A stretch of DNA of 64,000 nt, from positions 704,001-768,000 of the forward strand of contig OZ253462.1 in the NCBI GenBank assembly GCA_965261395.1, written 5' to 3'. This DNA comes from Candidatus Latescibacterota bacterium. Its GTDB lineage: Bacteria; Latescibacterota; UBA2968; UBA8231. Of the stretch, positions 5,747 through 26,216 are shown piece after piece. Position 1 is the first letter of the stretch. The number at the start of each line of letters is the position of its first letter. The position numbers and the translations under genes were made by a program. The notes under the pieces are model-generated. The model made no database searches. It was given only the letters and a program-made list of their open reading frames with translations, and was not told the origin of the DNA.

Positions 5747-7141
5747 ATGTACGAATACCGTATACACCAAGACGCTATTTCCAACTTCGATAGTAAAGCT
5801 TTATCTATAGTTGAAAGGGTCTCTTTCACACCACATGGGGTTGATAGACAACCAATTCATGGAACTGTAATAGAAAATTCAGGTACTGAACGACCTCAAC
5901 CATCTGGACCTGATTTCCATGTGTCTGGTGTGATTACGGAATCAGACATCGTAGGTGAGGTGGACATAGGGCAGGTGGATGGAGATGGAAATAGAATTTC
6001 GTACCAGTGGTACGATGAGCCCGGCCAGTTCAGTATATCAGAGCATAACTACTCAGATGTCCGAGGCCTCGCCGCTCAACTCTTGAAAAACCAAGATATA
6101 GATTCTGCTATCTCACGCGAGACGGTAGAAGGACTTATCTGTAGGTGGGTACGCCAATTTTATACGAAAATCACCAAACAGAGTTTTATTGAATTTTTTC
6201 GTGCGGAAGCAGAAAAATGTGTTTGCAAGCTTCAAGTTTGGGCACCGATTCGTAGTTTGTGCATACAAAAGGCATTCAAACTCGGCGTGGTAACTTTCGT
6301 GCCCATAGGCCGAACTCGGATTGATGAATGGGAAAGACAATCGCTCGTAAAAGCGAAAGAACACAAAGAGTCGATCAAACAATATTTCGAGAATGAAGTG
6401 CGGCCAGTTCAAGGGTACACCGCAGCAGTAATGGAAGTTACTGCTGAGCAAAAAAAGGCACATGGCCTTCTACTTGATGAGGCCAATAAGGCACTAGGCT
6501 TGGTTAGGGTATTCACACCCTCATCCTTGCTTCCGAGTGAGACTTCTTCCTGTGTTCTATGGGGTACTGGACATATCGACCAATCGTTTATCTTCACAGT
6601 CTCTGACGGAAAGTTTGAAGGCTCTCAAAAAGGGTTTCTTGGCCCTAGTAATCAACCTGTAATACTGAGTTCTGAGATCATCGATAACAGCTTTCATCTC
6701 GGTTTGCATCGCCTACATGAAATGTTAGTTTCAAACAGTAGATCTGATTTAGAAGAAGCGGTACTCGAAGCCGTTCTACTATACTCAAGATGCACCATAG
6801 CAAAAGAGCCTACTGATAAACTCGTCTACATCCTCGTAGGCCTAGAAAGCATACTTCTTAAAGATTCGAATGAGCCAATTACGCAGAATTTGTCTGATAG
6901 AATAGCATTCCTCGTAGGTCGCAATTTGCAACAAAGAAAAGATATAGTGCAGTCTACTAAAAAGGCCTACAAATTGCGTTCCGATTTCGTTCATCATGGT
7001 GCTTCGATTGAATCCCTAGAGATTCTTCGAAAATTTATGGAGATCGCATGGCGTGTGATACTAGCACTGATTGGCTCTACTAGTCAACTGAGAACACGCC
7101 AGGAGCTTCTAGATCATCTGGATGACAAACGGCTTTCGTGA
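5747..7141 (+). CDS. ApeA-like HEPN-domain protein (putative defence RNase)
   Basis: Low-GC ORF. The C-terminal HEPN signature is LVYILVGLESILL...LSDRIAFL...AYKLRSDFVHHG (RxxxxH). The ATG at 5747 has a GGGAGA RBS. Confidence 0.7.
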   Translation: MYEYRIHQDAISNFDSKALSIVERVSFTPHGVDRQPIHGTVIENSGTERPQPSGPDFHVSGVITESDIVGEVDIGQVDGDGNRISYQWYDEPGQFSISEHNYSDVRGLAAQLLKNQDIDSAISRETVEGLICRWVRQFYTKITKQSFIEFFRAEAEKCVCKLQVWAPIRSLCIQKAFKLGVVTFVPIGRTRIDEWERQSLVKAKEHKESIKQYFENEVRPVQGYTAAVMEVTAEQKKAHGLLLDEANKALGLVRVFTPSSLLPSETSSCVLWGTGHIDQSFIFTVSDGKFEGSQKGFLGPSNQPVILSSEIIDNSFHLGLHRLHEMLVSNSRSDLEEAVLEAVLLYSRCTIAKEPTDKLVYILVGLESILLKDSNEPITQNLSDRIAFLVGRNLQQRKDIVQSTKKAYKLRSDFVHHGASIESLEILRKFMEIAWRVILALIGSTSQLRTRQELLDHLDDKRLS

Positions 7142-7292
7142 ATTAAGAATACAAACTTCGGCCAATACTATACTTCTGAGTAATACCAGCTCAACACAGC
7201 TTCGGGAGCAAACCACACGGTCAGGAGACCTCACTGTTTAAGCTTGGTCTGACTAGCTCCGAACCGGATACACGAAGTTTGAACAGCGGGGC

Positions 7293-7321
7293 TTGACGGT
7301 GTACTGAGGGTACGATATTGT
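7293..7321 (+). promoter_or_regulatory. Possible sigma70-type promoter for 7402-8301
   Basis: TTGACG, a 17-nt spacer, then TATTGT. Confidence 0.3.
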
Positions 7322-7401
7322 TGCACACGACAGGCTTCTTGGATGAATCTGAGCTGAACACAAAAAGCGAGATATTTTCTTTTAGAACGGATTAGAACAA
7401 T

Positions 7402-8301
7402 ATGATAACTGACCTTTTCTCGAAACGGCAGAAACGGAATCGAGGCGAAGTTCCTGACGTGTACCAGTACGAGACCATTCCTCCTGAATTACGGATTCAG
7501 ATTTTCCAAATCTGGACAGATGCCTTTGGGGATACTAGCACGAGAGGTGCCGTCAGTGCATACGGGTATATCAACAAAGTGCTGTGTCGTGAGTATGGCA
7601 TGCTTACACTTACTGAATATAGTGATTCCTATTTTGAGTCAGTCTCCAAATTCTTCCTCCAGACAGAGGATACAGAAAAGATAGTTGATATCATTGAGCT
7701 TTTATTCCAGTATATAGATAAATATCTCCGTGGCTACACTCCTGAATTCAGTAATCAGGAAGTATCACCCGATGAGGCGATTGATGAATTAAATTATCGG
7801 TTCCGCGAACACGGCGTGGGGTATCAATACGAATCCGGTCAAATAATCCGAGTTGATTCTCAGTTCATCCACTCTGAAGTGGTGCGACCTGCGCTGAATA
7901 TGCTTTCTGCTCCAATGTACGAAGGAGCGAATGCGGAATTTTTGAGTGCGCACGAGCATTATCGATCAAAGAGGTACAAAGAATGCCTGAACGACTGTCT
8001 CAAAGCATTCGAGAGTTGCATTAAAGCGATTTGCAAAAAGAGGAAGTGGGGCTATAATGAAAAAGATACTGCTAGTCGTCTAATTGAGATCGTGTTCTCT
8101 AACGATCTAATTCCACCTTTCATGCAATCACACTTTTCGGCACTAAGGAACACGTTGACGGATGGAATTCCTACTGTTCGCAATCGCCTGTCGGGACATG
8201 GACAGGGGTCAGAAGAAGTCGCTGTTCCAGAATACATAGCCGCATACGCACTTCACTTGACTGCATCAAATATTCTCTTGTTGGCGAGAGCTGACGAGTA
8301 A
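7402..8301 (+). CDS. STM4504/CBY_0614-family protein (AbiJ-type N-terminal domain plus HEPN/Abi-C-like domain)
   Basis: N-terminus FSKRQKRNRGEVPDVYQYETIP..LRIQI, then AIDELNYRFREHGVGYQYE, CLKAFES and C-terminal RNRLSGHGQG. Low GC. Confidence 0.75.
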   Translation: MITDLFSKRQKRNRGEVPDVYQYETIPPELRIQIFQIWTDAFGDTSTRGAVSAYGYINKVLCREYGMLTLTEYSDSYFESVSKFFLQTEDTEKIVDIIELLFQYIDKYLRGYTPEFSNQEVSPDEAIDELNYRFREHGVGYQYESGQIIRVDSQFIHSEVVRPALNMLSAPMYEGANAEFLSAHEHYRSKRYKECLNDCLKAFESCIKAICKKRKWGYNEKDTASRLIEIVFSNDLIPPFMQSHFSALRNTLTDGIPTVRNRLSGHGQGSEEVAVPEYIAAYALHLTASNILLLARADE

Positions 8302-9506: not shown

Positions 9507-10625
9507 ATGGCAGAAAGCCAAGACAGCGGCTATGGCCGTGGCAAGACCGGATCAGGAGTCGAAGTAGCAGCCCCAGACTTACCCTACCAGCCGCGCGACC
9601 CGGCGACTTATCGTCCGCAGATCGGCCTAATCGGCTGCGGTGGCATTTCCGAGATGCACTTGCGGGCCTATAAAAACGCCGGCTATGAGGTCGCGGCCCT
9701 GTGCAGCCGTGATCAGGGGCGCGTCGAGCAGCGGCAGCGGGAATTCTACCCCGCGGCCGACACCTATCTCGACTATCGGGACCTGCTCGCCCGCGATGAC
9801 ATCGAAGTAGTGGACCTTACACCCCATCCGCAGGAGCGGCTGCCGATTCTCGAAGCGGCCATTGATGCTGGTAAACACGTCCTCAGCCAGAAGCCTTTTG
9901 TGCTCGACTTGGATGTGGGCGAGGCGCTCATTGCACGGGCCGAGCGGCGCGGCGTGCAACTGGCCGTCAATCAGAATGGCCGCTGGGCACCGCATTTTAG
10001 CTACATGCGCCACGCGGTGGCCGCTGGATTGGTCGGCCAAGTGCAGAGCGTCGAGTTCGCCGTGCATTGGGACCACAACTGGATCGCCAGCTCCGCCTTT
10101 GACTCGGTAGAGGATCTAGTGCTCTACGACTTCGGGATGCACTGGTTCGATATGGCAGTGGTGCTCTTAGGCAGCGAGATGCCGCAAAGGGTCCACGCCT
10201 CAGCCCGGCACGCAGCCGGCCAGGAAGCTAAACCGCCGCTTTTGGCCCAGGCGGCGATTGAGTGCGCGGGCGCGCAGGCGACAATCTTTCTCAACGGCAA
10301 CACTCGCCAAGGTCAACAGGACCGCACTTATTTGGTCGGCACAGAGGGCACCATAGACGCCAGCGGCATAGATCTGACCGCGCAGGAAGTCGCGCTATAT
10401 ACCGCTGCGGGCGTGGCCCGACCGCAGCTTGTGGGGACGTGGTTTGAGCAGGGGTTTCACGGGACCATGGGCGAACTGCTCTGCGCCGTCGAAGAGGGCC
10501 GCGAACCCAACAACAGCGCCCGCGAAAATCTCGCAAGCTTGGCGCTGTGCTTTGCAGCCGTAGCCAGCGCCCACCGTGGTGAACCCGTGGTGCCGGGAGC
10601 GGTGCGGCGATTGCCCGGCCATTAA
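9507..10625 (+). CDS. Gfo/Idh/MocA family oxidoreductase
   Basis: IGLIGCGGI Rossmann motif, AGKHVLSQKP, VNQNGRWAP and LYDFGMHWFD. It starts 3 nt after the upstream paralog, suggesting an operon. Confidence 0.9.
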   Translation: MAESQDSGYGRGKTGSGVEVAAPDLPYQPRDPATYRPQIGLIGCGGISEMHLRAYKNAGYEVAALCSRDQGRVEQRQREFYPAADTYLDYRDLLARDDIEVVDLTPHPQERLPILEAAIDAGKHVLSQKPFVLDLDVGEALIARAERRGVQLAVNQNGRWAPHFSYMRHAVAAGLVGQVQSVEFAVHWDHNWIASSAFDSVEDLVLYDFGMHWFDMAVVLLGSEMPQRVHASARHAAGQEAKPPLLAQAAIECAGAQATIFLNGNTRQGQQDRTYLVGTEGTIDASGIDLTAQEVALYTAAGVARPQLVGTWFEQGFHGTMGELLCAVEEGREPNNSARENLASLALCFAAVASAHRGEPVVPGAVRRLPGH

Positions 10626-10704
10626 GCCGCCTACAATGGGCTGGATCTTCGGTCCGCCACTTCGTTTTCCTGCCGCCAGACGGCAGTCTCCAAAGGAGTT
10701 TTCT

Positions 10705-11553
10705 ATGGATTCGACCTGCCTGCAACACACCTTGACCGAGGAGGAGCGTCGCCAATTTGCGGAGGACGGCTTCTTCATCGTCCGCGATGTGCTGCCTCGG
10801 GATTTGGTAGCACAGCTCATCCCCATCGTCGATCGACTCGCTGCCGAGTACCGGCCGAAAAAGGGGCTGGAAAAACACCAGATGCACAACTTGTTCGACT
10901 TTATCGGCAAAGATGAACTTTTTCTGGAGTTGCTCGACTGGCCAAAGACGTTTGCCAAGGTCTTCGGGATTTTGGGCTGGCACATTCAGCTTTACCACTC
11001 GCACTTGATCGTTACCCCGCCTTTAGACGGCGTCGTGCCCAAACGCAAGCGGCTGGGCTGGCATCAAGACAGCGGGCGGCTCAACATCGACTTGGAGACT
11101 CATCCCCGGCCGAGGGTCTCGCTCAAGGTGGCGTATTTTCTCACGGACTGCACCGAGACCAATCGCGGCAACTTCCACGCCGTGCCCGGCTCTCACCTAA
11201 GAAACAAGCTGGAAATGCCCGAGGACGAAGACTTAGACCCACCGGGCGCGGTGCCGATTCAAGTGGCGGCGGGAGACGCGGTCTTTTTCGACCGGCGGAT
11301 TTGGCACTCGGCCGGCCACAACTTTTCGCCCGACGCGCGCAGGGCGCTGTTTTACGGCTATAGCTACCGCTGGTTGCGGCCACGCGATGACATGACCGTG
11401 GAGCACCTGATGGACCGCTGCGATCCGATCCGGCAGCAGCTACTCGGTGCTGGCCCGAGCGGCGGGCACGGTTACACTTCGCCGAAAGAGGAAGACGTGC
11501 CGCTGAGAGAGTGGATCCGCGAGCATCTGGGTGCCGAAGCGGTGGTGCAATAA
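10705..11553 (+). CDS. Phytanoyl-CoA dioxygenase (PhyH)-family Fe(II)/2OG dioxygenase, EctD-like
   Basis: ATG after AAAGGAG. FAEDGFFIV, WHQD, VPGSH, GDAVFFDRRIWHSAGHN and a distal R. Confidence 0.9.
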   Translation: MDSTCLQHTLTEEERRQFAEDGFFIVRDVLPRDLVAQLIPIVDRLAAEYRPKKGLEKHQMHNLFDFIGKDELFLELLDWPKTFAKVFGILGWHIQLYHSHLIVTPPLDGVVPKRKRLGWHQDSGRLNIDLETHPRPRVSLKVAYFLTDCTETNRGNFHAVPGSHLRNKLEMPEDEDLDPPGAVPIQVAAGDAVFFDRRIWHSAGHNFSPDARRALFYGYSYRWLRPRDDMTVEHLMDRCDPIRQQLLGAGPSGGHGYTSPKEEDVPLREWIREHLGAEAVVQ

Positions 11554-11572: not shown

Positions 11573-13930
11573 TCAGTAGACTATTGAGACCAACTCGACA
11601 GCCAACTCGGTGCTCCCATCCCCTTTGACCTTCAACCGCGCTATATAATTGCCCGGCGGCACTTGCCCTCTCGTCCCGGTGCGCCCGTCCCACGCCAACC
11701 GCAGCGGTCCGGCCATGCCCATCGACTCTACCCCGGCCACGCGTCGTCCCGCCAAATCGAAAATCTCCAGCTGCACGGGCCGCGCTGTCAAAACATCGAC
11801 CAGATCCAGTGCGACGACCAACTCGTCATTGACCCCGTCGCCGTTGGGCGTCAACACGCTGGGGGCAATGGACATATTGGCCCACAAGGATCGACCCAGC
11901 GGCAAGCGCACCACATTGGTGCTGCTTTCCACCAACTCCGCAGCATCCCCTGGTTCGACCCGCTGGCGCACGGGCTCGGCCAGACGACTGTCCTCCAAAA
12001 ACAGCTCAAAGCGAGTGGCGTCGAGGAATATGGCCGCGGCAAAATCCACTTCCACCAACTGCCCCGAGCGCACTGGCTGCGGCAATTGCACGGCAAAACC
12101 ATCCTCCACCGCGGCCACTGCCACTTCCCGCACCACCCCATCCACCCGCATCTGGTCGAACTGCAAATCCGTCGAGGCCCGCACCAATAGTCGGTCAAAG
12201 CCGTTGCGCGTGCGCACGGGCCGCACATAGTACGTAAAAATTTCCTGCCGACCCGGTTGCACCAGCACGGGTGCCAGTTCCGCGACTACCTGCTGGGCCA
12301 GGGGCTCGGAAAAATCCAGCACCACCCAATCCAGCCACGCCCCCATCGCCGGATCGCCGGATACCAGCCGCCCTTCCAACTGCACATAGCGCCGCATGGA
12401 GGGCGACTGGAAGGGCTGGTCCGGCTCCAAGTACACCGGACTCCACGGACTCCAATCCACCCCTGGCACAAAGACCGTGTCAATGGGCCCGCGAAAAGAG
12501 GGGATGCGCCGCTCCCACTGCCGCTGAGTGATTTCCTTGCCCTCTGGACTGCGGTATATCACCTCAGTATCGAGCGTATTGCCCGAGCGGCTGCGCAGCT
12601 CCAGACGCGTGCCCCCCGGGGCCTGACCGCCCCAGCGCAAGGCATTGATATTCTTCTGTCCCTGCAAATCCAAAATGGGCGAGCGCAGATCTACCTGGAC
12701 CGGCGCGCCGCGGCCAAAGACCTGGAGTTCGGAGATAGTACCAGAAGCTCCGCAGCCGCGCGCATCCTCGCCGCCGAACTCGTCGCCGCAGTTGGCGTCC
12801 CACGTCTTCCATCTGATGCGCACAAAGCGGACCGGTAGACTGGTAAAACGGTGATCGGCTAAGCCCTGTACCCGGTTGAGCCAGCTACCCCAACCGGAAA
12901 AGTGCTTGGTCCAGCGCAGCGAGCCGTCCGGAGCCCGTGAACCGTCCGAGGTCAATACCTCGTAGAAATTGAACGAGAACCCGCGGTACTGGCCGGAAAA
13001 GGTGAGCAGCCGCACCTGGTCAACCCAGTAAACAGCCCCCAGATCTAGGGTGATCTGGGCAATCACATCGACATCGGCCCGGGTCGCCCGGATATTGGAC
13101 CAGACTGTGCTGATGCGGCCGTCCATCAACTGCAGGGCATTGGCCAGATTCGGGGTATCGGGATTCTTGGTATCGACCCCCACGACAATGTCCACGCTGC
13201 CGCCTCGCTCGATGGCCCCCTGTACCAGATTGTCGCCAAAGGCCTCCACCTCGATCTCGACCAGTCGCGCCTCGGGCGCCGCTTTCAGGGCCTCTACCCG
13301 CACGAAGTGCACTGGGAAGGGCTCGTCCGGGTTCAATTCATAGGTGATCCGGCGGCGGCGGTCCTCGGTAAAGCGCTCTTTAATCCGGTACGCCAAGGTG
13401 CCTTCTATCTGCGTGCGGGTCTCGTCGCGGAACTGTTCGCCAGTGGACAGCAGCAGATCGAAAATCTCAAAGGGAGGGCCTCGCTCGGAAAAAATCAGAT
13501 GCACCCGGTGGGCCGAAACCACCCGGCCCAGATCCACTTCGACAAACCAGTCCTCGACCCTCTCGTCCAAATCCGGCCCCCAGCCCGTGTCCCCGTCCCC
13601 GTCCAGCACCCCCGGCGCCTCCAGGGCATTGGAACCCACCCGGCTGATCCCCCCGCCAAAGGCCACCGCGTCCAGGACCGCATTGTTGTTCCGGCGCACC
13701 GCCACCGGCCGAATGATCCCCTCCCGCGTCAGTTCCACCGCCCCCAGGGGCAACTCCCACTGGTGCCACTGAGCCGCTGTTGCAAAGCGCAACTCGTCGC
13801 CGGCGCCCTTTTGCCAAGGGGCCAACAGAATGCCGATGGCGAGCAAAAACGCCCGGCCTGAATCCATTGCCGCACGACGGAAAATGCCCCCACTCGCCGC
13901 ATCCCGGCGGATTTCTACTCCCTGCTCCAT
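11573..13930 (-). CDS. Secreted discoidin/F5-8-like repeat protein with a C-terminal FlgD Ig-like domain
   Basis: Signal-peptide-like RAFLLAIGILLAPW. VDLGR and LDLGAVYWVDQVRL discoidin-type motifs. C-terminal PSVLTPNGDGVND..IFDLAGRRV..WDGR...VPPGNYI (FlgD_ig). The start is uncertain (13930 or 13867); the longer ORF extension overlaps the upstream gene. Confidence 0.7.
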   Translation of the reverse strand: MEQGVEIRRDAASGGIFRRAAMDSGRAFLLAIGILLAPWQKGAGDELRFATAAQWHQWELPLGAVELTREGIIRPVAVRRNNNAVLDAVAFGGGISRVGSNALEAPGVLDGDGDTGWGPDLDERVEDWFVEVDLGRVVSAHRVHLIFSERGPPFEIFDLLLSTGEQFRDETRTQIEGTLAYRIKERFTEDRRRRITYELNPDEPFPVHFVRVEALKAAPEARLVEIEVEAFGDNLVQGAIERGGSVDIVVGVDTKNPDTPNLANALQLMDGRISTVWSNIRATRADVDVIAQITLDLGAVYWVDQVRLLTFSGQYRGFSFNFYEVLTSDGSRAPDGSLRWTKHFSGWGSWLNRVQGLADHRFTSLPVRFVRIRWKTWDANCGDEFGGEDARGCGASGTISELQVFGRGAPVQVDLRSPILDLQGQKNINALRWGGQAPGGTRLELRSRSGNTLDTEVIYRSPEGKEITQRQWERRIPSFRGPIDTVFVPGVDWSPWSPVYLEPDQPFQSPSMRRYVQLEGRLVSGDPAMGAWLDWVVLDFSEPLAQQVVAELAPVLVQPGRQEIFTYYVRPVRTRNGFDRLLVRASTDLQFDQMRVDGVVREVAVAAVEDGFAVQLPQPVRSGQLVEVDFAAAIFLDATRFELFLEDSRLAEPVRQRVEPGDAAELVESSTNVVRLPLGRSLWANMSIAPSVLTPNGDGVNDELVVALDLVDVLTARPVQLEIFDLAGRRVAGVESMGMAGPLRLAWDGRTGTRGQVPPGNYIARLKVKGDGSTELAVELVSIVY

Positions 13931-14001
13931 CGACACCCACTTCCCCTTTGACAGAGTTTGTGGGTATCTATAGTAAACAAAAAGCGACGCATGCGTCGCC
14001 C

Positions 14002-16934
14002 CTAGGCCGGTAGCCCTGCAAAGAGCCGGCTGAACAGGCTGGTCAAGGGCTCGGTCTCGCCGCGCTGGGCCGCCCGGGCAAAGACTACGCCGGGCTGGGC
14101 CGCCCGCACTGCCCGGCCCAAAATGTGGTAATCGGCACGGCTGGGCCGTTGGGCCGCTTCCCGCGCCTCGCTCCAGCCCTGGTTGGTGGCGGCTAGACCC
14201 CATAGGGCACGCGGTGCCCGCACCTTGGTCTCCTCGACCGACAGGCCGTCGCGCCAACAACCACGCTGAGCGAATAGACTACCATCTTCCCGATAGATCA
14301 GCCCACCGCCCACGTATTGAATCAACTGCTGTTGGTTGCCCCGCGCGCCCGACAGGGCCAACAGAGCCAAGGGCCCCAAGTCGTTGTCGTCGAAATCGGC
14401 CTGCTGGTGGAAAGCCGCCACCAACTCGTCGCTGTACATTTGCCACTCGTCCCAATTGATCTCTGCGGGCTGCTCAGGCCACTCCTTGCCCGAACCCAAG
14501 AAGGGGTTGAAGGAAGCCCCCGACTGCTTGCAGACCTCAAAACCGCGCCGCGTCAGCCGGTCGAGTACCTCCAGTGATCGCTGCAAACCCTCACGCTGCA
14601 GCACCTGCGCTAGCAAGCGGTTGAGATCGTGCTTGGCGAACAGTCGGCTGCCATCCACAGCCACTCCAGTCAGTTCCTCCACTTCAGCGCGGCCTTCCTC
14701 CGTGCGGCACAGCCGCGCCAAGCCCCATATCATGCCGTGGTAGTTGTCGGCCACGTAGCGCCATACATCCGCATCGCGCTGTATGTGTCCGGCCACCGAC
14801 AGCGCGGTTCCGGCTTCGGCCTGGGCTTCCTCCGTGAGAGGCAAAAACACCTCGATATGGTCGCCGTCGAAATCTAGCTCCATCAGTCGGCAGACGCGCG
14901 GATGGACGCGCACTGCGGCCCCGGCCAAACGCTGCGGACGAAAGGCCACCATCGCGGTGGGCGGCACGTGGAACATCGGACCTTCTTCAACCAGCACCCG
15001 CTGGGCGCTGTACAGCAGCACCCACGAGCGCGCCATGATCGCGTCCAAAACCTCAGCCGCATGGGCCGAACGCCGCGCCACTTCCTCAGCGCGACCTATT
15101 TCCCGCTCCACCTGAGGCCCGAACAAAGCCCAGGCCATTTCCTCGGGCAGGCCCACTTGGTCAAGATTCAACTCAAACCCCGAAACAAGCGCGGCCCGGC
15201 CGCTAAACAGCGGTCTGGCCCGGAAGTGAAGGTGCTCTGGGCGCAACAACGCGGTAAAAAAATCCTCCACCCGTTGGGCCACCTGCGCCACTGCCGGTCC
15301 GACTAGGACCTCGGGGGCCTCGCTATCGACGACGCGCTGCAAGCGCGCATTGGCTTCGACCAAATCCTCGTAGCAGCCCCGGACCGGGTCGAACTCGGTC
15401 CCCACTGGCAAAGCGACGGGGGCTCCCACCGTCCCGACCTGGCGTCCCGGGGCCCACGGGTGCGGCACTGGCCGGGCTAGGGTCAGTCCCTCGGGCTCGG
15501 CAAAGGAGAAGCGCAACTCCCCACTCGCTAACTCGGCCCGTATCCCGGCCATACCCAACAACTGCTGCAACAAAGCAAAGCGCGGGGACGGTGGTGGGGA
15601 CAGGGATATCGGGCCGGTGGTTAGGCGCTGGCCCAGCGCATTGGCATCGGGTCGCTCGGCCGCGGCCGTGTTGAACAAAGCGTGGATATTGGCTACGGCC
15701 CCGGCCTCGCACAAAGCTCCGTAGGCTATCATATCCAGTTCTGGTCCGCCGACTCCTGTCACCGCAGTTTCCAAGCGCTCGGCCGCGGTGTGGGCCGCCA
15801 GAAGGCCCCAGTACACCCAACCCACAGTACTGCGATAGGGTAGCTTTGCGCCTTTGAGGGTCAGTTGCTCCATGCCATCTTCGGACAGTCCCGCCTCGAA
15901 TAGACGCGCTTTCAACATCTCTTCGCTGGGTGCCTGAAAAGGTGGTACCACCGACGGGTGCCCGGCGACTTGGGCGAGGCGACCCATGACCGCCTCGCGC
16001 TGCTGGCCGAAATTGAGCCGCGAGACCATACTGGTGGGGCTGAAGATGAGTTCTATCGGCGCACCATCGGGCAACTGCGGCATGTCGGCGTCGGGCAGGA
16101 TGCGCGTCACCACCGCTTTGGCACCGTGGCGGTTGCTCATGCGGTCGCCCACCCCCACTGCGGCGGGAAAATCCATCCGCGCCGCGGCCGATTCGCTAAT
16201 GACCAAGCCATCCTCAAACGTGTCTCCATCCCACATGATGAAGGCGGTCAACAGATTGTAGCCACCCCAAAAATCGACGGCCCCGGACTCGTATCCCGTC
16301 TGCACTAGGGCCGGTTCGGGCTTGTGGCCCTTGGAGGCCAAGCGCTGGTCGTACTGTTGGCGGAACCAACCCGTGGAGTGGATCGGTGCCGCTGTATCGG
16401 CTGCGCTCGTCCACTGGCGCATCATATTGATGCCCATTAGGGCGCGATTGGTATCGTCGTGTTCGAGAAAGGGCACCATAGAGGCCGAAAAACCCAAGAT
16501 GCTGTCGGGCGCTTTGTCGGTTCGTTCGAGCTTGCCGTCGCGGATGCGGGCACCGCGGGCCACTTCCAGCATTCGACCGATATTGGGGCCTTCGGGGATG
16601 CAGTAGGGGCACACTAGGCCGTATTGGCTGTAGGGGAAAACGTCTTGGTCGTCAAAGGGCTCGACGACGATGGGGATCAGCGTCAGCCGCCGCAAATGGG
16701 TATAGCGGTCGAGCCAATTGGTCGCCTGTAGATACTGCGAAGTTTCCTCCAAGTGGAAGTCGCGCATCCAGGCGTCCAGCGGCAGCCAGTTGCGCACCAA
16801 GTCGCCATCCCAAGCCAACTGCTCGGGGGCCGCCTCCAACCTTTGGTCAATAAAGTCGTATAGCTGTTCGCCCACACACAGAATTCGCGCTTGAAAGACT
16901 CCCTATGCCAGGGTACGTCGAGATTCAATGTCAT
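14002..16934 (-). CDS. Miniaturised single-chain RNA polymerase beta/beta-prime (RpoB-RpoC) fusion-like protein; 5' end frameshifted near 16895
   Basis: The 957-aa frame (14002-16875) has RpoB blocks SQYLQATNWLDRYTHLRR, VCPYCIPEGPNIG, PFLEHDDTNRALMGINMMRQ, FEDGLVISE and VGDRMSNRHGAKAVV..LPDADMP. RpoC blocks follow: FSGRAALV, VRVHPRVCRLMELDFDGD and SGARG. The strong GGAGG RBS precedes the ATG at 16934, in a different frame. Confidence 0.85.
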
Positions 16935-16975
16935 TAATGTTCCTCCGGGTTATTATTCGCGCTATGAGTTGTGGG

Positions 16976-17022
16976 TCCGGTATCTGCATCGAGGCCCTCC
17001 GCAGATAAAGACGCCGCCCGGA
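16976..17022 (-). promoter_or_regulatory. Stem-loop in the 5' leader of the mini-RNAP gene
   Basis: TATCTGC (16981-87) pairs with GCAGATA (17001-07). Flanking TCCGG/CCGGA could extend the stem across a bulge. Confidence 0.35.
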
Positions 17023-17169
17023 AAGTACAGGTTCAAGGTCGAAGGTAAAAAAGTCCCGAAACCTCATTGGAGGCTGGCTTCTTTTACGAGTTGACTCACT
17101 AGTCGAGCAGGGTATCTTACCACCCACCGTCCGAATACCAACCTTAACCCTTACAGGTGCTCTTGCCTT

Positions 17170-18123
17170 ATGAGACTAACACCAGCCCAACTCGACCAGT
17201 TTTACCGCGACGGCTACATCATCGTCCCCGACCTGTTCACTGCCGACGAGATGGACGCCGCCCTAGCGGCGATGGAACAGACTTTCTACGGCCAATTCTT
17301 CCAGCAGTGGCTGACCGATTGCGACCAAGGCGATGCCTCCGGGGTCTCGGACGGCTTCACCACCACGCACGACCACTCCGAGGGCCGCTCGCAATTTCCC
17401 GTGGGTGCGCCAGCCTTGGATCGGCTAATAGAAAACGAGACCTACCTCGACATTTTCGAGCAATGTCTGGGCGCAAAAGCCAGCTACTGCAACGCCCACC
17501 TCTTCATGCGCTCGGGGCCTACCGACAAGCGCCATCCCGACAACCCTTGGGAGGGCTACCACATTGACCACTACACCAATTGCCTGCTGCCGCCCTACGA
17601 CCAAACAGGCCGTTTCGACTACGTCAATTCGGGGGTGTATCTGCACGATGTCGAAGACGACGGTGCCCCCATGCAGATCATCCCCGGCTCGCACAAAGTA
17701 GCTGGCCCCGCTTTTGTGCGGGCGCTTGCCCAAGGCAACGCCACGGGTGGGTCCTTCAAGGACCTGCGCCAAGCCACCGAACTAGCCGCTCCGGTCCCCG
17801 CTACCGGTCGGCGCGGGGCGGCTGCCTTCTACTCGTCGTATCTGGTACACGCGGCGCAACCCTTTGCCAATAAGCGCAAGCAGCGCGCCTTTTGGACTTT
17901 GTCCATGTGCCGCCGCGACAACGATCGCTGGACCCGGTTCGCCAATCCCTTCATCTACGGCGAACGCGAGCACATGTTGCCCTTTTTCACGGCCACCACG
18001 CCCCGGGTGCGCGGCCTGTTCGGCTGGCCCGAACCCGGCCACCCGTACTTCACCAGCCAAACCCTGGAACTTTTGCAGCATACCCTACCTGGCATTGATA
18101 CAGGTCCCTATCGCGAAAGTTGA
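17170..18123 (+). CDS. PhyH-family Fe(II)/2OG dioxygenase
   Basis: FYRDGYIIV, YHID, IIPGSH and YLVHAAQP. Confidence 0.85.
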   Translation: MRLTPAQLDQFYRDGYIIVPDLFTADEMDAALAAMEQTFYGQFFQQWLTDCDQGDASGVSDGFTTTHDHSEGRSQFPVGAPALDRLIENETYLDIFEQCLGAKASYCNAHLFMRSGPTDKRHPDNPWEGYHIDHYTNCLLPPYDQTGRFDYVNSGVYLHDVEDDGAPMQIIPGSHKVAGPAFVRALAQGNATGGSFKDLRQATELAAPVPATGRRGAAAFYSSYLVHAAQPFANKRKQRAFWTLSMCRRDNDRWTRFANPFIYGEREHMLPFFTATTPRVRGLFGWPEPGHPYFTSQTLELLQHTLPGIDTGPYRES

Positions 18124-21502: not shown

Positions 21503-22039
21503 ATGTTGCTGATTAGACATTGTCAGTCCTCAGGGCAAGACCCGGATGCGACGCTGACAGAGACTGGGCGAAAACAGGCAGAAGCACTCGCTGGGTTCTT
21601 GTCCGACTACCCGATCGACATGATCGTCTCCAGCTCCTACAAGCGGGCACAGCAAAGCATTGAACCATTTGCTGCCAAAGTGGGATTGCCTGTTCACTTG
21701 GATCACCGCCTAATTGAACGGACGCTTTCGGGGAGTCCAATTGACAACTGGCGCGAGGTGGTCCGCGATTCATTTGGAGACTTGGAATTGCGAGTACCGG
21801 GCGGCGAATCGGCACGCGAAGTGTTAGACCGAGGCTGGGCCGCCATCACCGAGCTGCTCGACGGTAATCACCGGTTCCCAATTGCGGTAACCCATGGCAA
21901 TCTCTTGAGTCTGATCCTGAACTCACTGGACCCTACTTTCGGCTACGATGGATGGGAATCTCTATCGAATCCAGACGTATTTGCACTCAAAGAAGCCGAC
22001 GATGGGCGATTGGTATTCGAGAGGCTCTGGTCTGAATAG
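21503..22039 (+). CDS. Histidine phosphatase (phosphoglycerate mutase) family protein
   Basis: LLIRHCQS (RHG variant), LTETGRKQA, SSSYKRAQQS, PGGES and VTHG. Confidence 0.9.
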   Translation: MLLIRHCQSSGQDPDATLTETGRKQAEALAGFLSDYPIDMIVSSSYKRAQQSIEPFAAKVGLPVHLDHRLIERTLSGSPIDNWREVVRDSFGDLELRVPGGESAREVLDRGWAAITELLDGNHRFPIAVTHGNLLSLILNSLDPTFGYDGWESLSNPDVFALKEADDGRLVFERLWSE

Positions 22040-22234
22040 GCACTGAGCCGCTTAACAACGCGGTTCGGGCACAGTGGGAAAAGAAGTAGCGGGAAGGAGA
22101 TTGACCTGCGTCACCAGCAGTATTACTGTACAAATATCATCTATCATCACAGTCTGCGTCGTCCCACCGGATACGGCTCTAGGTGGTCGTGAGTTAGAAG
22201 CGGATTTCAGGAATTACCGCGAATAAGGATTGAA

Positions 22235-22504
22235 ATGCCTGAAATTTCCCGATTTTTCGGCATCATAATACGAATGTATGCTGAGCCTCATGTACCTCAT
22301 CACCGACCTCACCTTCACGCTTATTACCAAGAGGACGTTGGCGTATATGCCATTGATACTATTGAACTGATCGCGGGACAACTTCCCCGGCGACAGCAGC
22401 GTCTAATTGAGGCTTGGATGGAGTTACACCATGAAGAATTACTGGCAGATTGGGAGCGATTACAATCAGGTCAAGCACCTTTCAAAATCGACCCTCTTCA
22501 ATAA
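22235..22504 (+). CDS. DUF4160 protein (DhiT-like toxin)
   Basis: MPEISRFFGIIIRMY..HHRPHLHAYY..G.LPRRQQRLIEAW.ELHHEELLADWE..PFKIDPL. Confidence 0.9.
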   Translation: MPEISRFFGIIIRMYAEPHVPHHRPHLHAYYQEDVGVYAIDTIELIAGQLPRRQQRLIEAWMELHHEELLADWERLQSGQAPFKIDPLQ

Positions 22505-22515
22505 AGGAGATCGAC

Positions 22516-22818
22516 ATGCGTCATCCTATATACCGCGTAATCTTTTTTGAAATACAAGCACCCTATACACTCCGAGTTTGTTTTGACGATGATACGGAAC
22601 AGATTATCGATTTCCAGGCCATATTGGAAGGTGAACTATTCGGTCCACTTCGCGATGTATTCCTATTCAATCAAGTTCGGATTGATCCTGAGGTCCATAC
22701 TCTGGTATGGCCGAATGGGGCTGATTTTGATCCAGCCACTTTACATGATTGGCCCGAGCATCTTCCTGAACTTAAGCGCATGAGCAAGCGTTGGTCTCTC
22801 GTTGAGATGGAGGACTAA
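22516..22818 (+). CDS. DUF2442 protein (DhiA-like antitoxin)
   Basis: YTLRVCFDD..FGPLRD..FNQVRID..TLVWPNGADFDPATL. AAGGAG RBS. This is the usual partner of DUF4160. Confidence 0.9.
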   Translation: MRHPIYRVIFFEIQAPYTLRVCFDDDTEQIIDFQAILEGELFGPLRDVFLFNQVRIDPEVHTLVWPNGADFDPATLHDWPEHLPELKRMSKRWSLVEMED

Positions 22819-22878
22819 CGCGGTTTGGCCGATACAGATAATGATTTTTGATGTCGGAATACGAGGAGTAATCAGGTA

Positions 22879-22980
22879 ATGATAAGGGCCATCACGTCAG
22901 AAGACTTGAGAGATTGCGCACGTCTATTCGTGAAGGTTTTCTCCGAATGGGCGTACGAGATGTTGGTACGCCCTGAGTAA
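22879..22980 (+). pseudogene. N-terminal remnant of a GNAT acetyltransferase
   Basis: A GAGGAG RBS precedes MIRAITSEDLRDCARLFVKVFSE, a typical GNAT beta1-alpha1 start. It stops after 33 aa. Confidence 0.5.
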
Positions 22981-22993
22981 AGAAAGATGGTCC

Positions 22994-23963
22994 ATGCCCA
23001 CGTTCCCTCTCGAATCAATCGGGGTTGGTTCCCAGCTATACCTTACAGCGGCACCCGGTATCGAGCTTGGAACTCGCCTAAATGGCGGCCACTTCAGAGA
23101 CACTGTCGAGCAAGGTGTTGTGACTGATCATGGTTCTATTCTGGAAATTATGTGGGAATTGGTTCGCATGCGCGAATTTCCGTCGCGACCATGCCGATTC
23201 GACGCGCTCTTTCTTTGGCCAGATGAAGTTATCGCACGAGGATGGCATTACCGCCAAGGCTTTTTCGATTCCGAAACAGGCTCACAGCGCGGGCTGTACC
23301 AAGTTGAGGTGGAACGGATTTGTCAAATCTGGGCCGCCGACATGCACTTGATCAGTTACATCCGCGATGGCGAAACAGTTGAGGCGCTGATGCAGCGCGC
23401 GTCAATACTGGAAATCTGTTCCTAGCAAAAATCATCCAGAGATTCTTCTACACGGTCAGGTGATCGTTCGCCAGAATCTGCGTGATTTGGGAATAGAGCG
23501 AATTGTTCCCATACAAGATGCAAGTGTTGATGGGCTGATACGCGAACGCCTTTGGTCCGATTTGTCTGGTCATTCATGCCTGCTGTCGCAGAGCGGTGAC
23601 TCTCGTTACCTATTGAGTCTGCAAATGACCGTGGCAACTGATCTGCCAACGCCGCTGGCCGGCTGGATCGGTCTGGAAATCGAAGGGCTGAATGAGGTAT
23701 TGAAACCGAGACGAGGAAGGGAACCGATTCTTGTGACCGGACATGCACCACTTAGTTACAGACTAGATGATGAGAGTGGTGTTTGCGAAACTCCATATGA
23801 GTTTAAGGATCCAGTAGTAGCTGATGCGGCGAGGGAGTGCGTGCTAGGGAAAAGGCGCTTTCGACCTGTATTGATCTGTAATCGGGAAGCGGCTCACTAC
23901 TGGCAGTTGCCTTCCTATTGGGATGGCCAAATTCCCGGAAATTGGACTACAGGTAAAACATGA
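22994..23963 (+). pseudogene. Frameshifted DUF2441-like (ART-fold) protein with a C-terminal extension
   Basis: ORF 22994-23425 has ELVRMREFPSRPCRFDALF..LYQVEV. The expected YW....PEILLHGQV motif lies in the +1 frame from about 23400 and runs without a stop into ORF 23460-23963. The break is in a CGCGCG run. Confidence 0.65.
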
Positions 23964-24037
23964 GCAAGTTCGCGTACTTTCTCAATTCTTAGTTTAATCT
24001 TTGGCATGGCGTTTTCAGTGAAGCTATTTAGGTCCAC

Positions 24038-24790
24038 TTAGGTGATTTCTATTCTAAATTCACGGTCAGACTTTTTCGCCTGGACATACTGAATATTGCG
24101 CTCCTTGCAGAGAGTCTCTATACAGGACTTGAACCATTTTTCTATTCTTACCCCAAGAATAACACGTGAAATTGGCCACGATAGAGGATATTCTTTATCA
24201 CCACAATCCGTTATTAAGCGCCATTCTTTCTCGTACGCCCATTCCCATGACTTGGTTTTCATCATGAGCCTTATCGTCTCGCCATCTTGGTTAATCAACA
24301 TCTACCCAAGATCGATTGGTGGATAATGCCTTTCATATCTTACCGGCGAACACCTTTCTTCATCGCCAAGATAGTTATTTTCGGCACGGGTAAACTCAAA
24401 GCAAACACCTTTGTGATTTTGTGCATAATGGGACCACATAAGTATTGAATCGCAGACTTCTGACAGGCATACGACTCCTGAGTTCTTGTTTTCTTTTTCG
24501 AAATTTCTAACTATTTCGTTCAATCGTTTCCGTTCTTCTATGGTAAATTTCCCATTGGCATCAAGCTTCGATGTCTTGTATTCGGCAACTTGACTTTCGT
24601 TCCGCCATCGGCGTGCTGCCTCTAAGACACTTTCTTCGGTTATGTCTTTTTCAATCTCCAAATCACAGTCAAATGGATCATTGAATCGCTCTGGTTTTGA
24701 TGCCCAAAGGCGACCGTTGATCAAGATGTCTAATGTATAGGCGTCTGGGGGTTTGTACATGTAAAGTTTCTTGATAAGAGGGTAGAGCAT
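24038..24790 (-). pseudogene. DUF2971 family protein interrupted by an in-frame TAG (24302-24304)
   Basis: LWASKPERFNDPFD, VVCLSEVCDSILMWSHYAQNHKGVCFEF and VRY come before the stop. TKSWEWAYEKEWRL..ISRVILG continues in the same frame after it. Confidence 0.8.
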
Positions 24791-24830
24791 CTATTATGTC
24801 TCCTAACGGTTTTTCACATATACTCAACTT

Positions 24831-26216
24831 CTACCCAAGCTTGCGCTGTTCCGCTTCAATAATTTCCAGTTGCGCCTCTATTGCGGCGTAGTACTCGGGT
24901 AGCGGATCTACCTCATACAGCATGTCAACACCTTGCTGCTGGCAGTTATCGAATAGGATCATGCCCCCCTCACTCGGTTCCTCCATATCCTGTACAGCCT
25001 CTCGAAGGTCGACATAGAAGCTACGCGAGGCTGCATGTTCGGTCTTCAGTTCCTTGGACGCCATTCTATAAAATGTGGTCTTTGCACTTGGAAACATCAT
25101 TCGCTTGAAGAAGCCTTCCTCGGCGACCCCCTCTGTCGCAACTTCTAGGTGCTTCTCAAAAAACAAGTCCATTGCACCTACGACATTATGATACAACTCC
25201 ATAAATGCATCCCGAAACTCGGCAGCGAGATACCGGAGATCCTCAAGAGCTCTGCGAAGATGTCGCTCCTTGACCCATCCGCTGATTCCCTTGCCGGTAA
25301 AGATGCCGGCCAAGCTGCCTAATACTGGTAGAACAACGGCCGATAGGCCCCCTGTCACGGGTGCTAACGCCAGCCCCCAACCAAGCCCAGCCGTGCCTCC
25401 GAGCCAACCGCCAACACCGCTAGCAGTCGCGTCGAGCGCGGTGTGTTCTGCCGCGATCTTCCAGTTTATATCGCCTTTGCGCAATTTATGGATATTCTTA
25501 CATGCGTTGATGGCCAACGAAATGAAGGGAACGCTGTCGATCCCATCTCCGAGGTCGGCAATCCCCTCAAACGTGTCGGCCGTGCTGTGAAATGCTTCTT
25601 GAGAAGAGAGTTCAGAATTGATTACAACTCGGGGGTTGTCGCGGAAGGCGTCGGCCATCTCCCGGTTTGCGATTACGTCGATATCTGGATGCTTGTCGAG
25701 GTGGTCTTGGATATACCGTCGTTCATCTGTGACCTTAACGTTGTACGGCTTCCCATCTATTATATGGTCCCATCCCTCGTTAGTACCTGAACCTGGAGTC
25801 TCGACGTCATGCCCTCTATCTCGGTAATAGTCTGCTACAGCATCCTCGGCGGTGTAGCCCTTATATTTGTCGATCATCCGGTCCCAAGCTTCCGATCCAG
25901 GCTCGGACTTGATGATCTTGCTTTTCATAAAGTCCATGAGGTCACCAAGATTATCGAAGCCTTGTGCGTGGTGCAGATGCTTCATCCCCTCCAGAGCGTT
26001 GGGGTCTAGTTTCATCGTGTTGTATAGCACATCAAACGTGCTTACACCTGTCACGACAGCTCCGTCCACTCCTAACTCTCGCGCTACACTCTTCCGTAGC
26101 GGTTCGTCAACCTTGAGCGTCTTTGTGAGGAAGGCCCGCTGGCGCGACCGATGGAAGTATGAGGCTGTGCTGAGTACGACAGTCGCAACAGCTATACATA
26201 TAAGGATGACTTCCAT
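24831..26216 (-). CDS. Hypothetical membrane-anchored protein with a PD-(D/E)XK-like central motif and a glycine-zipper hairpin
   Basis: N-terminal TM helix, then KGYTAE...NEGWDHIIDGKPYNVK, then Gly-rich hydrophobic GVGGWLGGTAGLGWG..PVTGG..GSLAGIFTG, and a helical C-terminus. Confidence 0.6.
   Translation of the reverse strand: MEVILICIAVATVVLSTASYFHRSRQRAFLTKTLKVDEPLRKSVARELGVDGAVVTGVSTFDVLYNTMKLDPNALEGMKHLHHAQGFDNLGDLMDFMKSKIIKSEPGSEAWDRMIDKYKGYTAEDAVADYYRDRGHDVETPGSGTNEGWDHIIDGKPYNVKVTDERRYIQDHLDKHPDIDVIANREMADAFRDNPRVVINSELSSQEAFHSTADTFEGIADLGDGIDSVPFISLAINACKNIHKLRKGDINWKIAAEHTALDATASGVGGWLGGTAGLGWGLALAPVTGGLSAVVLPVLGSLAGIFTGKGISGWVKERHLRRALEDLRYLAAEFRDAFMELYHNVVGAMDLFFEKHLEVATEGVAEEGFFKRMMFPSAKTTFYRMASKELKTEHAASRSFYVDLREAVQDMEEPSEGGMILFDNCQQQGVDMLYEVDPLPEYYAAIEAQLEIIEAEQRKLG

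Follow-up and report, generated by a model that had tools for sequence, protein, structure and literature searches.

An original prediction for a 64,000-nucleotide (nt) stretch of DNA from a Candidatus Latescibacterota bacterium (contig OZ253462.1, positions 704,001 to 768,000; this whole stretch is hereafter called the window) placed a stand-alone, miniaturized fusion of the RNA polymerase subunits RpoB (beta) and RpoC (beta') at positions 14002 to 16934. The fusion gene in the window belongs to a large family of such genes. However, the family gene is not stand-alone. It is one half of a two-gene unit that consists of a promoter of the extracytoplasmic function (ECF) type, a gene for a dedicated ECF sigma factor, and the polymerase gene; a terminator-like hairpin follows in many loci. 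We consider it possible, and put it forward tentatively, that in at least seven phyla this unit provides a second, orthogonal, and self-reinforcing transcription system, in which a single-chain RNA polymerase of ~1050 amino acids (aa) and its own ECF sigma factor form a holoenzyme. The copy of the unit that is carried by the window is most likely a young relic.

A single-chain fusion of reduced beta and beta' subunits

The open reading frame (ORF) in the window and its main parts are as follows.

14002–16875, reverse strand: beta–beta' fusion ORF with 957 codons plus a TAG stop and a GTG start, truncated at its 5' end relative to the ~1050-aa family
15529–16875, reverse strand: beta-like (RpoB) half, with the fork/Rpb2_3 block, the PFLEHDD block, the FED motif, GDRMSNRHGAK in the beta double-psi barrel, and a C-terminal block ending FALLQQLLGMAGIRAEL
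14005–15480, reverse strand: beta'-like (RpoC) half, with LARPVPHPW, the clamp coiled-coil (YEDLVEANARLQRVV...), switch 2, the DFDGD barrel, the SGARG/bridge-helix block, and a C-terminal AAQRGETEPL
14860–14874, reverse strand: catalytic aspartate triad DFDGD, preceded in the window clade by E-L in place of N-A
16057–16149, reverse strand: beta-barrel basic motif GDRMSNRHGAKAVVTRILPDADMPQLPDGAP

All 18 motif strings taken from the blocks named in the original prediction can be located in this one frame, with DFDGD at exactly the predicted position, and the beta-like half continues into the beta'-like half between 15529 and 15480 without a stop. The proposed scan with hidden Markov models (HMMs) places three RNA polymerase domains of Pfam above their cut-offs within the single frame. 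These are RNA_pol_Rpb2_3 (ORF residues 47–111, 23.2 bits, cut-off 21), Rpb2_6 (residues 241–357, 98.5 bits, E 5.9e-28, cut-off 23.4), and Rpb1_2 (residues 627–690, 46.7 bits, E 5.4e-12, cut-off 25.3). Models of the full-length proteins in NCBIfam match the ORF piecewise and far below their cut-offs: TIGR02013 (rpoB) scores 149.3 bits against 801.15, TIGR02386 (rpoC) scores 95.2 bits against 963.5, and NF007172 (full-length rpoBC fusion) scores 154.2 bits against 5372.

The 6.55-Mb contig that carries the window (C1:704001–768000) also carries a canonical rpoB (1818.9 bits) and an adjacent rpoC (1763 bits) at C1:4758637–4766417, ~4 Mb away. This makes the window gene an additional copy and confirms the expectation of an accessory RNA polymerase paralog beside a separate canonical pair. 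Because of this second copy in the genome, and because the scores remain below the NCBIfam cut-offs, we do not regard the family as canonical RpoB or RpoC. The genes that neighbor the window ORF are PhyH, AstE/AspA-like, and F5/8–CHU_C genes, and the rplL–rpoBC cluster context is absent.

The family profile matches a solved bacterial beta subunit with E 1.9e-88 and a beta' subunit with E 4e-54. When compared with the subunits of Escherichia coli K-12, the family HMM aligns to beta residues 448–579, 652–707, 791–821, 1054–1148, and 1177–1342, and to beta' residues 268–516 (independent E-value 1.4e-42) and 590–793 (independent E-value 2.2e-12). Weak matches are seen at beta 118–147 and at beta' 76–130 and 1320–1354. 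The homology with the cellular enzyme is collinear over ~900 profile positions. By this homology, the family is a reduced RpoB plus RpoC single-chain fusion of bacterial beta/beta' descent.

Named structural elements were placed by their positions in the E. coli subunits. On this basis, the parts kept from beta are the N-terminal strand, the fork, the hybrid-binding block, the barrel, switch 3, and the C-terminal part that contributes to the clamp. Those kept from beta' are the clamp coiled-coil, switch 2, the active-site barrel, the F-loop/bridge region, and the last conserved block. By alignment, the lobes and flap of beta have no counterpart in the fusion, and neither do the beta' elements zinc finger, lid, rudder, trigger loop, or jaw.

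The window segment SGRAALVSG...GLPEEMAWALF aligns to switch 2, and the SGARG...GLA.T block aligns weakly (9.3 bits) to the bridge helix. In one comparative study, switch 2 and the funnel/bridge region are proposed as a mark of those two-barrel polymerases that are DNA dependent (PMC2919709). Both parts of this mark are present in the family.

Size and distribution of the family

A phmmer search of 1.84 billion representative sequences gave 306 matches at E≤1e-30. Among the best 150 of these matches, 91 are 943–1101 aa long; longer ones (1948–2522 aa) align in five to seven pieces around the barrel at ~190–205 bits, and the matches that belong to the family do not exceed 1101 aa. More than 100 clusters of relatives with lengths of ~1000–1075 aa occur in several phyla. 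At 100% coverage, the relatives listed by a word-indexed search reach as low as 43% identity, and all of them carry the name 'hypothetical protein' in their sources. A set with one genome for each species contained 261 candidate stretches, of which 228 were confirmed, and the locus analyses described below are based on the best 80 of these 228, many of which are on complete chromosomes. These 80 loci come from Latescibacterota, Poribacteria, Chloroflexota, Planctomycetota, Armatimonadota, Hydrogenedentota, Gemmatimonadota, and a Moanabacter.

In the Protein Atlas, the entry for the homolog P0049 shows two clusters of look-alikes (73 and 135 members, ~1006–1026 aa). Further clusters listed there consist of single proteins of 1164–1787 aa that combine Rpb2_6 and Rpb1_2, with taxa not recorded. 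Other fused polymerases of intermediate size may therefore exist.

Pairwise comparisons within the genus of the window give ratios of nonsynonymous to synonymous substitution rates (dN/dS) of 0.13–0.18 in 24 of 24 pairs, and the window copy falls within this range. The fusion is thus under purifying selection over its whole length.

The possibility that the window gene is a polymerase of the YonO kind from a phage or mobile element, or else a one-off decayed or misassembled rpoBC, is in our view barely credible. Two observations speak in its favor. The distribution of the gene is patchy (66 of 168 genomes of the window's phylum and 21 of 30 genomes of its genus), and a gene resembling AbiJ is located 6 kb away in a stretch of low GC content. 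Some genomes that are assembled as a single contig lack the gene (e.g., G138), and G141 holds only a C-terminal remnant. However, a collection of viral contigs yielded two weak, partial matches only (35% and 28% identity over ~100–220 residues). PADLOC has no match for the polymerase, and its matches in PHROGs are only to full-length phage families that resemble rpoB and rpoC. Moreover, the flanking genes are ordinary and are syntenic within the genus. In a FastTree phylogeny of 47 rows (30 of 77 rows were dropped beforehand as near duplicates), the proteins group largely by phylum with some mixing. The one-off scenario, which the original prediction had named as its refutation, fails because hundreds of relatives have the same deletion boundaries.

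A partner ECF sigma factor and its promoter

Genes near the 80 loci were identified by clustering ORFs that had been called by a longest-ORF rule. One neighbor recurs across phyla, which is a protein of ~200 aa encoded directly upstream of the polymerase gene on the same strand. Sigma70_r2 and r4_2 domains are present in all six of the upstream proteins tested. For three of three tested, TIGR02937 (ECF superfamily) is the sole NCBIfam model that passes (96–112 bits, cut-off 42.9), and no NCBIfam equivalog fits these three proteins. When the sigma protein is used as a PADLOC query, a marginal match is obtained (E 0.0011), and its matches in PHROGs are to sigma families.

As judged by tblastn, the sigma gene is located upstream on the same strand in 75 of the 80 loci. 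Its stop codon overlaps the start of the polymerase gene in 37 of the 75, the two genes are separated by 0–150 nt in 27 and by 190–263 nt in 4, and one gene is inserted between them in 7. The next gene 3' of sigma is consequently the polymerase in 68 loci, and in 7 it is an ABC-transporter gene or a gene of unknown function that is then followed by the polymerase. The five loci that lack a full sigma gene are L065 and L067, which start at a contig edge, L078, which has a partial match at an edge, and L018 and L083. Open frames of 1194–1244 aa that had the appearance of sigma–polymerase fusion proteins were rejected; they are produced by an alternative open frame that runs over the sigma gene.

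Between phyla, members of the sigma clade are 40%–55% identical to the first sequence of the alignment. Mean column identity is 60%, and the linker motif VPxWMIDxxxLGPD is conserved. The sigma gene of a Ktedonobacteraceae locus (L056:1636–2232) has an in-frame stop at codon 65 and was for this reason left out of the alignment; the stop may reflect decay, a sequencing error, or read-through. ECF sigma genes are usually, but not universally, co-transcribed with an anti-sigma gene. No anti-sigma domain was seen among the scanned neighbors of the unit. A search of seven loci with Rfam gave zero matches.

The signals that flank the unit are still present in the window.

17010–17035, reverse strand: retained ECF-type promoter TGAACC-N14-GGCGTC of the sigma–polymerase unit
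13980–14003, reverse strand: terminator-like GC hairpin and T-run, directly 3' of the polymerase stop codon

The sequence TGAACY-N14-GG[T/C/A]GTC is found upstream of sigma in 68 of the 76 loci with a sigma match, and the spacing is 14 nt in 67 of these 68. Most of the remaining eight loci have near variants of the promoter when inspected by eye. Hairpins follow the polymerase stop codon in many of 31 loci that were likewise inspected by eye, and the hairpin in the window was also found by a scan.

A purine-rich element (AGTAGAGGG, AGTGAAAG, AATAGAGGGG) is present 8–20 nt 3' of the −10 element in most loci, and in the window it is located at ~16992–17005. It is distinct from the ribosome-binding site in those loci where a separate GGAG follows. 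The element may represent a conserved start site or an initially transcribed sequence.

In a Chthonomonadaceae record (L083:4900–5230), a TGAAC-N14-GGTGTC promoter is located directly 5' of the polymerase gene without an intervening sigma gene, and no cognate sigma gene was found within this locus. In some genomes, the unit is present in two diverged copies. For example, L030 and L079 are in one record and their polymerases are 45% and 42% identical to the query, and each has its own sigma gene and the same promoter motif. Two copies are also present in genomes G076, G042, and G014.

An RNA-library run (X15) contains contigs that are 90%–99% alike to the window and that come from a relative. 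One contig of 444 nt covers an intact 3' end of the sigma gene together with the 5' end of the polymerase gene, and another of 2080 nt covers the 3' half of the polymerase gene. We do not count these contigs as expression, since DNA can occur in such libraries.

Possible functions of the two-gene unit

The reading that we favor, although with reservations, is that the fusion is an accessory single-chain RNA polymerase whose own initiation factor is the partner sigma. The fusion protein would be an active RNA polymerase, and the partner sigma would dock on the retained clamp coiled-coil to form a two-protein holoenzyme. This holoenzyme would start transcription at TGAAC-N17-(C/T)GTC promoters, its own promoter included. 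The outcome would be a self-reinforcing accessory transcription system that operates beside the normal RNA polymerase. Three features of the loci point to sigma as the initiation factor of the fusion: the genes are tightly coupled, the coiled-coil survives though almost all other peripheral modules are gone, and the sigma factor appears to serve this unit alone.

Conservation of the active site also speaks for an active polymerase. Among 110 aligned members, the three catalytic aspartates of DFDGD are kept in 105, 107, and 104. In the beta barrel, the G-D columns are kept in 110, the K/R position in 109, the R in 110, and the K in 101. The acidic E-D pair, which is part of FED in the window, retains E in 100 members and D in 105. 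The residue before A-DFDGD is N in 57 members, D in 27, and E in 20, with E in the window.

These numbers bear on another explanation, in which the fusion is a mimic of core polymerase that serves as a sigma sink or anti-sigma, or as a decoy for inhibitors, and catalysis is irrelevant. The fusion occupies the usual place of the anti-sigma gene in ECF units, the sigma-docking coiled-coil is kept, and two positions described as invariant are altered in the window clade (see below). A decoy, however, would not need the three aspartates, the beta K/R..R..K residues, and the E-D pair that are kept in 100–110 of 110 members, and purifying selection acts over the whole length of the protein. A passive decoy or anti-sigma role fits poorly with such conserved catalytic residues, and we consider the mimic quite improbable.

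Several observations weigh against a dedicated sigma–polymerase holoenzyme. Neither the flap nor the lobes, the lid, or the zinc finger have a counterpart in the fusion, and the flap is the element that anchors sigma region 4 for recognition of the −35 element. The trigger loop is absent by alignment. In its geometry, the promoter is an ordinary ECF promoter with a spacing that does not vary, which fits a sigma factor working on the normal core of the host at least as well. With strict patterns, no targets were found beyond the unit itself, in a search that left weaker or different promoters aside. In five genomes with intact units, the core promoter motif has 24 matches versus 24 for a reversed-pattern control. 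Extended clade motifs, with up to three mismatches allowed, were found a single time in each of 10 genomes tested, and only at the unit's own promoter. Likewise, in the 1.37 Mb of 81 loci, 70 of 82 motif matches are the unit's own promoter, and the 12 others compare with 12 in the control.

The sequence of the window clade itself adds to these difficulties. The comparative study cited above names eight residues as invariant among two-barrel polymerases, and both the R and the P of the 'RAP' turn of beta' are among them (PMC2919709). Across the family, this R is kept in 83 of 110 members and the P in 84 of 110. The window clade reads S-A-Q at this turn, beside an insertion of ~10 residues where the alignment is uncertain. 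The combination of S, Q, and E (R to S, P to Q, and N to E before A-DFDGD) is found in 13 of 110 members. The other six invariant positions are kept in the window clade, one of them as a K-to-R change. Since two of the invariant positions and the N are altered, the chemistry of the window clade may differ. We take the R and N positions to be those that contact the ribose of the incoming nucleotide, and there is a slim chance that the window clade has an altered sugar selectivity (R to S, N to E).

The most substantial competitor to the favored reading is that an ordinary ECF sigma works on the host core only, where it induces the two-gene unit, and that the mini-polymerase acts without sigma. 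We judge this to be somewhat unlikely, and we are equally doubtful about the effector polymerase that it implies, which could use templates that are single-stranded, nicked, or foreign, for example, or could work together with other factors of the host. Such an arrangement agrees with the canonical ECF-like promoter (spacing fixed in 67 of 68), with the lack of flap, lobes, lid, and zinc finger in the fusion, with the presence of the promoter once per genome in 10 of 10 genomes, and with locus L083, where the promoter directly precedes the polymerase gene and a sigma gene between the two is lacking. In addition, purified YonO alone is reported to have made active elongation complexes on assembled scaffolds (PMC5467207). 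It is harder to reconcile with the retention of the clamp coiled-coil when almost every other peripheral module has been lost, with the overlap of the sigma and polymerase genes in 37 of 75 loci, with the unusual conservation of the sigma clade across phyla (40%–55% identity, column mean 60%), and with the fact that no anti-sigma gene was seen in the unit.

Damage to the copy in the window

Two deletions in the window copy, both on the reverse strand, were defined by alignment with the same-genus loci L007 and L019. They leave the following remnants.

16893–16934, reverse strand: remnant of the true family start (ATG plus 13 codons, MTLNLDVPWHRESF), out of frame with the long ORF; deletion junction near 16892/16893
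16935–16989, reverse strand: remnant of the partner ECF sigma gene, with an ATG at 16989 and ~12 codons, a ~541-nt deletion (junction near 16952/16953), and the last ~7 codons

Relative to L019 and L007, the polymerase gene has lost 238 nt (79 codons plus 1 nt), and the frame is shifted. The ~541-nt deletion has removed nearly all of the sigma gene and leaves ~19 codons, and an island of 59 nt is retained between the two deletions. After MTLNLDVPWHRESF, the sequence resumes out of frame at ...QARILCVGEQL, and because of the frameshift the long ORF can restart only at the GTG at 16875. The frame was originally thought to be continuous to 16934; the ATG at this position instead opens the normal family start and is followed by the frameshift after 14 codons. 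The deletion has cost the polymerase its conserved N-terminal ~80 residues. Close relatives are ~100 residues longer, such as P0002 (1057 aa, 97% identity) and P0003 (1056 aa, 96% identity), both of which begin MTLNLDVPWHRESFDLF...

The window copy therefore cannot be taken as an intact example of the family, as it had been, since both its sigma factor and its conserved N-terminal domain are lost. The earlier remark that no sigma gene is nearby is true of the window as it stands. The reason is that the sigma gene, which precedes the polymerase gene in relatives, was almost wholly deleted, and its remnants and its promoter can be recognized at 16935–17035.

Both deletion junctions are spanned by a public contig of 1756 nt with 0 differences (run X1) and by a contig of 1541 nt with 1 difference from a different study (X2); X1 might be the sample from which the window derives. 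Relatives that co-occur have intact versions, as loose ends in runs X7 and X15 show. The same truncated start is also found in alleles that have decayed further, of which P0045 is 837 aa long and P0056 is frameshifted. A search of the window's own genome found no other member of this sigma clade; the best match to the sigma family there scores 105 bits, versus 248–327 bits for members. Considering the loss of the sigma factor and of the conserved N-terminal segment, and the absence of another family sigma in the genome, the 957-codon ORF is most likely no longer made or no longer working.

Alternatively, the 957-aa form could be a working, N-terminally shortened isoform. Its frame is intact, and dN/dS against orthologs is 0.13–0.17, which is not above that of intact copies and gives no sign of relaxation. 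A second genome carries an equally truncated 957-aa allele (P0001) that differs at 24 of 957 residues, contigs of two studies hold the doubly deleted allele, and the promoter is retained. All of these observations count against a relic. Nevertheless, we consider a working short form to be unlikely. The cognate sigma is absent from the whole genome, and the deleted N-terminal part includes positions that are kept in at least 90% of members (Y35, P66, G72, F74, V83, and P85). The GTG restart is 59 nt 3' of the old ATG, and when the sequence was read by eye no ribosome-binding site was seen before it. Alleles with the same start carry more lesions (P0045 and P0056). Finally, a member of the same genus (L018) has lost its promoter and sigma gene independently, and G141 keeps only a C-terminal remnant.

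The deletion in L018 (L018:7700–8010) is a clean one that takes the promoter and nearly the whole sigma gene and leaves an intact polymerase gene of 1047 aa. The repeated loss in one genus (the window, L018, and G141) suggests that the function of the unit is conditional or costly.

Comparison with known polymerases and sigma factors

The collinear order of beta followed by beta' is the same in the window family, in canonical RpoB and RpoC, and in the RpoBC fusions of the Helicobacter/Wolbachia type (NF007172, NF011417). All of them also have the catalytic motifs, the fork, switch 2, the clamp coiled-coil, and the bridge-helix region. In contrast, these proteins total ~2700–2900 aa, compared to ~1050 aa for the window family. 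Unlike canonical rpoBC, the window gene is located outside of the rplL–rpoBC cluster, in a genome that also has a normal rpoBC.

Two-barrel polymerases of reduced size occur in phages, on yeast plasmids, and in viruses. The closest in architecture, likened by description and not by sequence, is Orf6 of the yeast cytoplasmic linear plasmid pGKL2. Published descriptions present Orf6 as a ~980-aa fusion of the Rpb2::Rpb1 type in which about half of each subunit is deleted and the lid and rudder are missing (PMC2919709, PMC6211774). The fusion was called unknown in any other polymerase by its authors, and the pGKL2 polymerase is described as poxvirus-like in origin, without a clamp coiled-coil, with a second small subunit that corresponds to the beta' C terminus (Orf7), and with no sigma factor (PMC6211774). 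By these descriptions, the window family is set apart by its bacterial descent, its retained coiled-coil, its single chain, and the ECF sigma factor encoded alongside. The retained coiled-coil points to sigma docking, in contrast to the sigma-less yeast enzyme, which has lost this element.

YonO from the Bacillus prophage SPbeta is a single chain of ~100 kDa with a two-barrel core and no trigger loop, and it is reported to be an efficient DNA-dependent RNA polymerase (PMC5467207). A single chain that lacks a trigger loop can thus be an efficient polymerase. The window family resembles YonO in all three of these structural respects. However, YonO is homologous to the cellular enzyme only in the barrels, and its need for a factor in promoter recognition is left open in the same paper (PMC5467207). 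The fork, hybrid-binding, clamp, and switch regions of the window family align with the cellular enzyme at E 1e-88, its genes are chromosomal, and it has a sigma partner. Because of this extensive homology and chromosomal context, set against the published description of YonO, we do not consider the family to be YonO-like. The view expressed in the original prediction that YonO is the more divergent of the two agrees with this comparison, given the distant homology reported for YonO (PMC5467207).

The partner sigma resembles ECF (group 4) sigma factors with autoregulated promoters in having regions 2 and 4 only and a promoter of the GAAC...CGTC type before its own gene. Unlike the usual ECF sigma factors, its co-transcribed neighbor is a polymerase and not an anti-sigma, and no further copies of its promoter were found in the genomes tested. 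The main text of a published ECF classification makes no mention of RpoB, RpoC, or Rpb (PMC7826278). Our literature search, which did not extend to supplements and some older comparative work, revealed neither a bacterial beta–beta' fusion of ~1000 aa nor a sigma factor paired with one. The same search revealed no report of a cellular, chromosomal, bacterial-type mini-polymerase that is paired with sigma. The family therefore seems to be undescribed in the literature.

If the favored reading is true, sigma-directed, promoter-specific initiation would be carried out without alpha, omega, flap, lobes, zinc finger, lid, rudder, trigger loop, or jaw, and the fusion would be the smallest sigma-dependent polymerase known. 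The sigma–polymerase pair, as a holoenzyme, would amount to a natural deletion experiment that defines the smallest set of parts with which sigma-dependent initiation and elongation can proceed. Such a pair would also be informative about the evolutionary assembly of the large enzyme, and it would offer synthetic biology a compact (~3.8 kb) orthogonal sigma–polymerase pair. Many of the parts that are missing from the fusion are docking sites of antibiotics, phage inhibitors, and regulators. If sigma merely induces the unit, then the question becomes what use the cell has for a second, stripped polymerase.

Neighboring genes

Apart from sigma, the neighbors of the polymerase gene vary by clade and include BlaI/BlaR1–TonB, PhyH, ABC-transporter, dethiobiotin-synthase-like P-loop protein, and short-chain dehydrogenase genes. 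Cluster c14, a protein of 344 aa that has a DksA/TraR C4 zinc finger, is encoded just upstream of sigma on the same strand at L071:3378–4409 and in 11 other Latescibacterota loci. Fingers of the DksA type bind the secondary channel of RNA polymerase. In 11 loci of one clade, c14 is followed by a 316-aa protein of no known family (cluster c15).

In the window, a 784-aa protein with F5/8 type C and CHU_C (type IX secretion sorting) domains is encoded just 3' of the polymerase terminator (11576–13927, reverse strand). An F5/8–CHU_C gene is also found 3' of the polymerase in L013, L019, and L022, and other clades are without it. PhyH (phytanoyl-CoA dioxygenase) genes are present on both sides of the unit in the genus, as seen at 17170–18123 and 10576–11553 in the window (both forward strand) and at L027:11191–12036.

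The gene resembling AbiJ (7402–8298, forward strand) encodes a 299-aa protein with an AbiJ N-terminal domain 4 (E 1e-28) and a DUF7014 domain (E 3e-48). It is within a low-GC stretch at 6001–8000 (GC 0.44, compared to ~0.6 around it), and looks like an acquired gene of the abortive-infection type. A second low-GC stretch (0.48) is located at 22001–26000 of the window.

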